Below are positions 60,596 through 64,000 of a stretch of 64,000 nt of DNA, piece after piece. The DNA lies in the NCBI RefSeq assembly GCF_002854065.1, contig NZ_CP024147.1. One strand, written 5' to 3'. The position numbers were made by a program, and so were the translations under genes. A model generated the notes under the pieces. The model worked only from the letters and a program-made list of their open reading frames with translations. It searched no databases and was not told where the DNA came from. The number at the start of each line of letters is the position of its first letter. Position 1 is the stretch's first letter. This DNA is from Escherichia coli (GTDB taxonomy: Bacteria > Pseudomonadota > Gammaproteobacteria > Enterobacterales > Enterobacteriaceae).

Positions 60596-62507
60596 TCACT
60601 GGAAACAAGTAACCAGACCAGGTTTATTGGCTAACGTGATACTACAATCCTCTGTGCCAGTGCTCTCGTCCATCCCACACCGTTGAGAGGACAAGTAAGG
60701 GAAACTTGGCGAAGCTGGCCATCCCAGCGAATTAAACACAGCATACAATGTCTCTAACTCATTGTATGTCGGTGCATTTTCTATATTTCCACACTGCTTC
60801 GAGATATCCCATTTGCTGGCATCAGTAATATGCGCAGAAGCCCAGTTTTCGTAGTTAATAATCGGTGAGGATACGGGATTGGCCCCGGACGGTAATTCAG
60901 TTGTCAGTATCGGTCGATGTAATGTTTTTCCATTCACCACTGCCGTGTCTGCCATATGCCCCCAGAAGTGAGCAGAAGATACATTTGGGCTGGTCAATAC
61001 GGTGAAAATAGTGTCCATCATTGCAGTCACTGTTGGGTATTTATCCAGCGTTACCGTCAGCGGCGTTTTATAACCCGGCGTATTGTCCTGACGAACAGTA
61101 AAGTTTGCCGTGCCGTCTGCCCCCGTCACGCCACTGATCTCGTTCCCACTAACCGCTAATAGGGTAGCCGCCCCCGATGATGGCTGGATGGTAATATCAT
61201 CCATAGCCGCCACATCGCCATATAGCGTCGCCCCACTATTACGCGGAGAGGCATCACCACGTCGCAGAGTAAACGCCACATTTGGCACAGGTTTCCCGGC
61301 GCTGTCTTTCACCGTCACGGTGACTGGCATTGCCTCGCCCTTCTTCACTTTCGCCGCCTGAGTGGTGGAGTCAAATGCCGTTGACGTCAGGGTGACGGTA
61401 GAAACCGTTGAGTGAGGGTGCACCAGGCACGCCTGGAAGGCGCGGCTTTTAGATACAGTAACAATTTGACCTGTATTGAAGTCAAATGATTCACAAGAAT
61501 TCGCGCCCGCAGGACAATCTGCATTTGTCCACCACACATAGCTATTCTGTTTCACCGGCCAGCCAATCTCATTGACGATAGAGCCATTCGGATAGCGGTT
61601 GTATAAAGATTGAAGCTCATCCAACGATGGATATCGTGCGCTTTCACAAGGGGTAAGCTCCGGCAAATATCGCTGGGTAATATATGGCGCAGGCCAGCTT
61701 TCATTATTTATATTCACTTTAGTGAGCGAATAACCGCCACCGCTGGTTGCCCCCATTTCGGTCCACAGTTTCATCCGCTCAAACTGCGTTCCGTCTGCTG
61801 AGCTTACCGTTTCTGGCATATGTCCCCAGAAATTGGCTTTGGGCGTATCCGGGCTTGTTACTACGGTATACATCAGGTCGAGATCTGACTTTACCCCTGT
61901 GTCACGTGCAAGCGTCGCCGTAAACGGTGTTACCAGTCCCCAGGTATTATCCTGCGTAGCGGTTAACGTGATGATGCCATTACCGTCCGTAACCCCGTTC
62001 CAACTGGCGTTATCATCTGCAAATTTGTAATTGGCTTGCGCAACCGGCGTCAGGAACTGTAGCAGTAGATCATCTGCTGTCGAGCTTTTGAAATCACTCG
62101 TAGTGCGCACTTGTGCTGTCGCACGCGACAACGTGACGCTTTCATAGGCGGCAGGTCTGCCCGCATCATCCGTGACCTTGATGGTTAACGGTATTGATTC
62201 GCCCTTCTTCGCCCATGCGGTCGGACGGTTGTCGTTGATGCCTGTTTTGTCCGCATTCAGCAACGTAGAGGTCAACTCAATCTTCGTTGCCTCAGTGTGC
62301 GGGGTCAACCAGGCAGAGCATTAAATTGCCCGCCGTCGATGTTGTGCTTTCGTTGCGGATAGCACCGTCCATCAGATTAAGCACCTGGTTATACCATGTT
62401 GAACTTGAAACAGTTTGATCGTACGCCCACCAGTAATTACCTGCGTTAAGAGGCAGCCCCAAATCAGTTTCCAGCGCACCATTTGGATGGTCGTTGTAAA
62501 GCCCCAT
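60596..62507 (-). pseudogene. RatA/RatB-invasin-like repetitive Ig-domain protein, C-terminal part, reading frame broken
   Basis: ORFs 62292-62507 and 60596-62308 share the repeat architecture of the upstream ORF (WGHM motif, LYN...GWP motif, VTVKD..G.P....FTL.RGD Ig-like motif); frames joined only by a 1-nt shift in the G4 run at 62301-62304. Confidence 0.55.
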
Positions 62508-64000
62508 TAGCTCGCTACTGAAGGGTTGATAAGGCGAAGTGCAGCCTGAGTAGGGATGTATTCCGCACCACAGCCATTATTACTGGCATCTGCAGCCTGC
62601 GCCACGGTAAACAGCGCCCAGGTTTCGTTCTCTTCGTCCTGGGATTTACGCTTTTTAGTCACCGCCAGCTCGGCAAACAGTAACGGACGTTTAAAGGTCA
62701 GCCCGCCCGCCGTCAGCGTTTCCGGCATGTGTCCCCACATTTTCGCCTTGTCTGTATCCGGGCTGGTGGGTACGGTGAAAATGGTATCTATCGATGCATT
62801 TATCGTTGGATCAGAATAGAGCGCTGCAGTGATCGCTGTTTTGGTGCCATGGGTCTCCGGGCGAGTGATGGTCAGAATTTTGCTGCCGTCAGCGTCGGTT
62901 AACGCGGCGTATGCGGTGGCAGAGTCATTCAATGACGCTTCATCGGACATTCCTGCATCAACCACTACTGGCGAGACAATATTGTCACTACCTGCGACAT
63001 GTCTTTCATTATTTCGGGTATAGCCATCGCCACGTTTCAGGGTAAACGGCATTCCCGGCATAGGGTTGCCCGCTGTATCTTTCACCGTGACTTTCACTTG
63101 TAACGTTTCGCCTTTTTTCAGTTTTGCCGCATTAAGCGTGCTATTCCACTGTGCCTGATCCACGACTTCCAGCGTAATGGTGCTGGCAGGTGGGTTGGCG
63201 TCCTTCAGGCAACTCATATATACCCGATCATTGCCCGTATTCTGAACATTGCCATTATTCAGCCAGACTGAGGCAAGGTGCGGGACTTTATCAATCGGCG
63301 TGCTGCTCCAGTACTCTTTAAATACCGTAGGCCAGCCGTGATTGGTTAGGATCCTGTTATTACTGTTCGCATTGTACAACGCAGTCAGTTGTGTTTGACG
63401 CGGTACTTTCCGGGTTTCACACCCGCCCGCCGACGTGTTTTCGATATCGGCCTGTGCGACGATCACCCATTTTTCGTTATTTTCCTCACGCGAGTCTTTG
63501 CCATTACTCACTTCCAACAATAATTTCGGGCGATTAAAGGTCGTGGAGTCAACGGTTATCGTGTCGTCCATGTGCCCCCACATTCTCGCTCCCATCACAT
63601 CCGGGCTGGTGGGAACGGTAAAGATCACATAATAGTTAATAGTGTTCGGCAAAACTGAATTAGGAGGCGTGACAACAAGTCGCGTTCTTAAGCCAACGCC
63701 TTGTGGCTGCTCAACAACAACGGTTGCCTGCCCCTGTGCGTCTGTAATACCGGAGTAAACCATTGAGAATTGTGAGGTACCGTACTGCGTCCCATTCAGG
63801 GTTATTGCGCCGTTACTGGGATCGGTAAACCCGGTTGCGCTTTCTTCACGGTCAAGACTGATATCTTTGGTAATAGTAAAAGCCGTGAACGGCACCCGCT
63901 CGCCATTCAGAGCATTAACTGTGCGCACCGTCATGGTGATTTGTTCACCGACTTTCGCCCGTGCCAGGCTGCCCGAGGTAGTATCACGATCGGTTGTCAC
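62507..64000 (-). CDS. RatA/RatB-invasin-like repetitive Ig-domain protein, 5' end beyond window
   Basis: Open frame runs to the window edge; contains two copies of the same module seen downstream; stop overlaps next ATG (TAATG at 62505-62509). Confidence 0.6.
   Translation of the reverse strand: MTTDRDTTSGSLARAKVGEQITMTVRTVNALNGERVPFTAFTITKDISLDREESATGFTDPSNGAITLNGTQYGTSQFSMVYSGITDAQGQATVVVEQPQGVGLRTRLVVTPPNSVLPNTINYYVIFTVPTSPDVMGARMWGHMDDTITVDSTTFNRPKLLLEVSNGKDSREENNEKWVIVAQADIENTSAGGCETRKVPRQTQLTALYNANSNNRILTNHGWPTVFKEYWSSTPIDKVPHLASVWLNNGNVQNTGNDRVYMSCLKDANPPASTITLEVVDQAQWNSTLNAAKLKKGETLQVKVTVKDTAGNPMPGMPFTLKRGDGYTRNNERHVAGSDNIVSPVVVDAGMSDEASLNDSATAYAALTDADGSKILTITRPETHGTKTAITAALYSDPTINASIDTIFTVPTSPDTDKAKMWGHMPETLTAGGLTFKRPLLFAELAVTKKRKSQDEENETWALFTVAQAADASNNGCGAEYIPTQAALRLINPSVAS

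Follow-up and report, generated by a model that had tools for sequence, protein, structure and literature searches.

The window, as the whole stretch of 64,000 nucleotides of Escherichia coli DNA analysed here will be called, belongs to the core chromosome, with guaB and xseA at 57.5-60.5 kb, and over about 50 kb its identity to strain CUWW06 was 99.97-99.99%. Directly before xseA (59151-60527) lies a repetitive gene, which the mechanical list of open reading frames divides into three ORFs on the minus strand, at 62507-64000, 62292-62507 and 60596-62308. The first is an edge ORF of 497 aa that runs off the window, and it shares its frame with the 570-aa ORF at the other end (62509 - 62308 = 201 = 67 x 3); the 71-aa ORF between them is in another frame and also carries the GLYNDHPNG...NYWW motif. 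Where the first two ORFs meet, the minus strand reads ...GTA GCG AGC TAA TGG GGC..., so that the stop codon TAA (62509-62507) overlaps an ATG (62507-62505). Where the second gives way to the third, it reads ...CTG GTT GAC CCC GCA CAC TGA..., with the CCCC at 62304-62301 corresponding to a run of four G on the plus strand. These elements, namely the TAATG at 62505-62509, the GGGG at 62301-62304, the frames of the ORFs and the motif in the 71-aa ORF, had already been pointed out in a preliminary description of this DNA, and all of them were found again. The features of the region, as defined by alignment to intact alleles, are collected in Table 1.

Table 1. Features of the interrupted RatA-like gene in the window; residue numbers are those of the intact 2139-aa protein.
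Feature	Position	Strand	Basis or remark
5′ fragment of the RatA-like gene in its native frame	62545..64000	-	Equivalent to residues 728-1212 of the intact protein; the gene continues past the window edge
CTCAGG, the sole remaining microhomology copy, at the junction of the 835-bp deletion	62545..62550	-	At this point the BLAST alignments to L001 and L011 shift by 835
Twelve non-native codons read out of frame after Q1212, AALRLINPSVAS, ending in TAA 62507-62509	62507..62544	-	ORF list and translation
ATG of the TAATG, the codon of internal Met1504 rather than a genuine start	62505..62507	-	Intact alleles identical and in frame; no SD motif upstream
71-aa ORF: native M1504-P1572 (part of InvE_AD, module 5), two aberrant residues (AH) and TGA	62292..62507	-	Comparison with the intact protein
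C4 run: +1 in the C3 that spans codons D1571/P1572 (GAC CCG)	62301..62304	-	Site of the one gap in alignments with L001 and L011
3′ fragment: native H1573-Q2139 (modules 6 and 7), native TGA 60596-60598	60596..62300	-	Comparison with the intact protein
Mechanical 570-aa ORF enclosing the 3′ fragment; fortuitous TTG start 8 nt upstream of that fragment	60596..62308	-	ORF list

The intact orthologue of this gene is 6420 nt long, encodes 2139 aa, is annotated as 'adhesion domain-containing protein' and is present in many E. coli. At the locus, sinH, sinI and the RatA-like gene, the last of the island, follow one another between der/yfgJ and xseA, a context that was confirmed with the RefSeq annotation of four loci (L001, L002, L010 and L011) and with the gene calls of L003. 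The intact protein matched the NCBIfam RatA-like model NF011844 with E = 0 and 3196 bits, and the parts found in the window fell on consecutive stretches of that model: the 71-aa ORF on positions 2061-2127 (E = 7.5e-18, with a weak match to Pfam InvE_AD) and the 570-aa ORF on positions 2126-2683 (E = 2.3e-240). The models for RatA-like, RatA and RatB proteins (NF011844, NF011843 and NF011842) all match the intact protein and the fragments of the window. Because every score lies below the curated whole-protein cut-off of the corresponding equivalog (3196 versus 3870 bits for the intact protein), these matches are read as membership at the level of the family and not as equivalog status.

Seven TSPD...WGHM anchors recur in the intact protein with a period of 268-291 aa, and thus mark seven modules. 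In precomputed Pfam matches, the domains BIg21 (PF05688) and InvE_AD (PF05689) alternate, with four modules in a 1224-aa ORF and two in a 555-aa ORF. The 1224-aa ORF, with its four BIg21 plus InvE_AD modules, is the 5′ ORF of full-length contigs that carry the damaged allele, and in the same contigs sinH (726 aa) and sinI (321 aa) are intact. By its sequence, the region is what is left of a single broken gene for a predicted RatA-like giant surface adhesin in the sinH-sinI-ratA island.

When the window was aligned to intact alleles by BLAST, two collinear blocks were obtained whose offsets lie 835 nt apart, together with one single-base gap. Against CUWW06 not a single SNP was found in this gene, the only differences being an 835-bp gap and a 1-nt insertion, so that the window carries frame-disrupting lesions relative to an otherwise identical intact orthologue. 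The alignments place both lesions to the base in the window. The missing segment corresponds to nt 3632-4466 of the CUWW06 gene (about aa 1212-1490, roughly one module). In the intact allele this segment is flanked by two copies of CTCAGG, and its flanks match at 12 of 14 bases and little more (L011). The inserted C is the only small indel between the two versions of the gene; its 15 G runs and 16 A runs, all of 4 to 6 nt, are the same in the window and in CUWW06.

Removal of one C from the C4 run yields CLVDPHTEATKIEL, the exact sequence of the intact orthologue, which bears out the earlier proposal that a one-base removal there would restore the frame. When, in addition, the 835 bp were put back, 1412 of 1412 residues were identical to aa 728-2139 of WP_032288260.1, the CUWW06 protein; together with the two lesions, this identity supports the reading as a recently pseudogenised adhesin, one of the three alternatives in the preliminary description.

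The same alignments relocate the first frame break to 62545-62550, 36-41 nt upstream of the TAATG, which had been considered as a possible decay junction; the true lesion is the 835-bp deletion, which lies a few codons before it. The pentamer itself is the same in intact alleles, where it is read in frame as GAG CTA ATG GGG (E L M G). It is incidental: it results from the altered frame, and is neither a mutation nor a signal for coupling. An AGGAGG-like motif at a usable spacing was absent upstream of its ATG, where the sequence is CAGTAGCGAGCTA; the starts downstream are likewise all without an SD sequence, and their ORFs have no signal peptide.

The two outer ORFs share a frame because the lesions sum to -834 nt. 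A rescue of the frame by two compensating lesions was considered and rejected, as in the shifted stretch between them three stops (62509, 62374 and 62323) all come before the C4 site.

The most coherent explanation, and a very probable one, is that two mutations inactivated the RatA-like adhesin gene in one lineage of E. coli, leaving a pseudogene and not a switch or a set of coupled genes. One of them is the gain of a C at codons 1571-1572, by which C3 became C4 and the protein was truncated at ...CLVDPAH*. The other is the deletion of 835 bp between the CTCAGG microhomologies, presumably by replication slippage or some other illegitimate recombination; homologous recombination between modules was rejected as an unlikely cause, since beyond CTCAGG, or 12 matching bases out of 14, the flanks have almost nothing in common. 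The deletion took out about one module and shifted the frame by -1, after which translation runs through 12 wrong codons into a TAA that by chance overlaps the Met1504 codon and so creates the TAATG. With stops at 62507-62509 and 62292-62294, no functional full-length product is expected from the allele, and loss of function is the likely outcome. The cell could still make an N-terminal fragment of 1224 aa, with about four modules behind an N-terminus that resembles a signal peptide.

The distribution of both lesions was followed among 5426 complete RefSeq E. coli genomes, of which 976 contain a related gene and 47 the allele type of the window. The tract was C3 in 47/47 genomes with this allele, and it was checked base by base in four of them (L001, L002, L010 and L011). 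None of the complete RefSeq E. coli genomes carries the deletion junction; in the 46 where the junction could be assessed, the alignment always ran across it in one piece with the 835 bp retained. The preliminary description had asked if the separate ORFs were conserved among orthologues, and they are not, with the three-ORF split in 0/47. A single gene is annotated in the four loci inspected, that is, in L001, L002 and L011, and in L010 apart from an IS1B insertion. The latter, at 8136-8833 of the locus in E. coli 100416 (NZ_CM128593.1), the closest complete genome at this locus (99.9%), lies within the RatA-like gene and represents an independent inactivation.

Tract lengths were also compared among metagenomes: a scan of JGI data for C2 to C5 matched a single contig, with C3 and without the deletion, too few for population statistics, and no C2 or C5 variant was returned with it. 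In the census of the tract, C3 was found in L001, L002, L010, L011 and L020, while C4 was confined to the inactivated allele.

Contigs with both lesions were found through the exact 71-aa, 555-aa and 1224-aa products, which fall into singleton clusters that bear no annotated name. In this way the double-lesion allele was recovered from at least nine independent assemblies (Logan, ENA and NCBI), 99.9-100% identical over the shared sequence, which reaches up to 9.7 kb. Two of them differ from the window elsewhere, by 1 and 4 SNPs, and therefore the assemblies are not copies of one file. An allele present in at least nine assemblies is not a one-off assembly error and must be inherited in a lineage.

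One further contig bears on the order in which the lesions arose. The Logan contig 95854 of run SRR33454234 (L019), reached through the 555-aa product, has C4 at 1226-1229 but keeps the 835 bp. It shows no other difference from CUWW06 or the window, and resembles an intermediate stage in the evolution of the pseudogene. By exact-identity look-up, which can miss variants, neither the product expected from the deletion alone (636 aa) nor the full-length product of the C4-only state (1574 aa) was present in the records. As C4 without the deletion exists and the product of the deletion alone is not on record, the data suggest that the insertion came first and that the deletion followed in a gene that was already dead, an order that is tentative because it rests on a single Logan contig of 3.2 kb. 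This contig could alternatively represent an independent insertion or an assembly chimera.

A less passive role of the C run can be imagined. If it were unusually mutable, a base could have been gained more than once, as C4 occurs with and without the deletion, and the -1 deletion of about one module could then reflect past selection for a restored frame; in another such reading, the 1224-aa fragment, if secreted, could be retained as a functional short adhesin with four modules. Such readings are given little credence. A related idea, raised in the preliminary description, is that the run is a slippage-prone contingency tract for phase variation of the adhesin. A +1 change in a homopolymer within a surface adhesin gene is indeed what abolishes the frame at the C/G tracts of contingency loci in Neisseria, Haemophilus and Campylobacter, and C4 on two structural backgrounds could in principle mean recurrence. 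However, homopolymers known for phase variation usually measure about 7 nt or more, whereas the tract here has only 3-4 nt. The intact alleles are also without length polymorphism, since all 47 complete genomes and the sole JGI contig have C3 and neither C2 nor C5 was found among them, whereas C4 is confined to the inactivated allele. The 835-bp deletion in the window is, moreover, irreversible, and the longer G and A runs of the gene have not changed relative to CUWW06. Phase variation is therefore a very improbable account of the insertion.

Errors of sequencing or assembly were another concern of the preliminary description, as assemblies often contain false indels in homopolymers or collapsed repeats, and this gene is itself repetitive. 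Nevertheless, both the junction and the C4 recur in at least nine runs or projects, and the DNA of the modules is too divergent for a collapse of repeats, so that there is hardly any chance that one or both of the frame breaks are artefactual. Equally improbable is the proposal that the ORFs are separate genes, tandem paralogues joined by translational coupling at the TAATG. This overlap is a classic signature of coupling, the same pentamer joins two ORFs in TAATG/ATGA-coupled operons, and gene callers do call products of 1224, 71 and 555 aa. But the arrangement is conserved in no complete genome, and intact orthologues read through the TAATG to give one protein. Unlike the ATG of a coupled operon, the one here is an ancestral internal Met codon, with the TAA in frame only through the upstream deletion and with no SD before it. 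The 71-aa ORF is a fragment from the middle of a domain, the ORFs downstream have neither a signal peptide nor an SD sequence, and the split products remain nameless singletons. A pseudogene produced by two lesions very probably accounts for these observations.

The gene has known relatives. The sinH-sinI-ratA cluster of E. coli is the counterpart of the CS54 island of Salmonella, and the inverse autotransporter encoded alongside has been suggested to take Rat-like proteins as substrates (PMC4943183, PMC12928451). RatA and RatB of the CS54 island and the E. coli 'ila' cluster occupy the same site by xseA, have the same neighbours SinH (the inverse autotransporter) and SinI, and are built of the same BIg21 plus InvE_AD (DUF823/DUF824) repeats, as reflected in the matches to all three NCBIfam models. 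In contrast to those systems, the gene described here is broken up into three ORFs; when intact, the E. coli allele has 7 modules, and the RatA-like model is longer, with 2683 positions.

Loss of members of the CS54 island is also familiar, as shdA, ratB and sivH are recurrent pseudogenes in Salmonella Typhi and Paratyphi A (PMC2658671). The resemblance lies in the independent loss of large colonisation adhesins through frameshifts or deletions, in which selection and drift are not separable (PMC2658671). The lineage here is a commensal-type or environmental E. coli, unlike the host-restricted Salmonella, and has kept sinH and sinI intact. Within E. coli, different members of the sinH-sinI-ratA island have been lost in different lineages; in O145 RM9872 (L001, 1038-3219), sinH, the candidate translocator, is annotated as frameshifted, and the RatA-like gene is intact in O145:H28.

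Other differences between the window and CUWW06 were noticed in the hyf genes. The start codon of hyfA, for subunit A of hydrogenase-4 (26073-26075, plus strand), is ATA in the window and ATG in CUWW06. The 71 nt around it find matches in 4297 complete RefSeq E. coli genomes, every one with at least one mismatch to the window and none identical, and the ATA may be a second lineage-specific loss-of-function mutation. Further along, CUWW06, otherwise near-identical, has a copy of IS26 in place of the segment found at 28631-31367 of the window (plus strand), which runs from the 3′ end of hyfB through hyfC and hyfD to the 5′ end of hyfE.

The RatA-like gene of the window is a case of the ordinary decay of a large adhesin gene. 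Its three ORFs are better annotated as one RatA-like adhesin pseudogene, and they illustrate that a TAATG overlap can arise purely through a frameshift upstream. The double-lesion allele could be a marginally useful marker for this lineage of E. coli, with little import beyond annotation. It does offer a clean example of how a giant repetitive adhesin appears to have decayed in two steps, with the presumed intermediate allele on record, in a lineage that is probably without a functional RatA while it keeps sinH and sinI.
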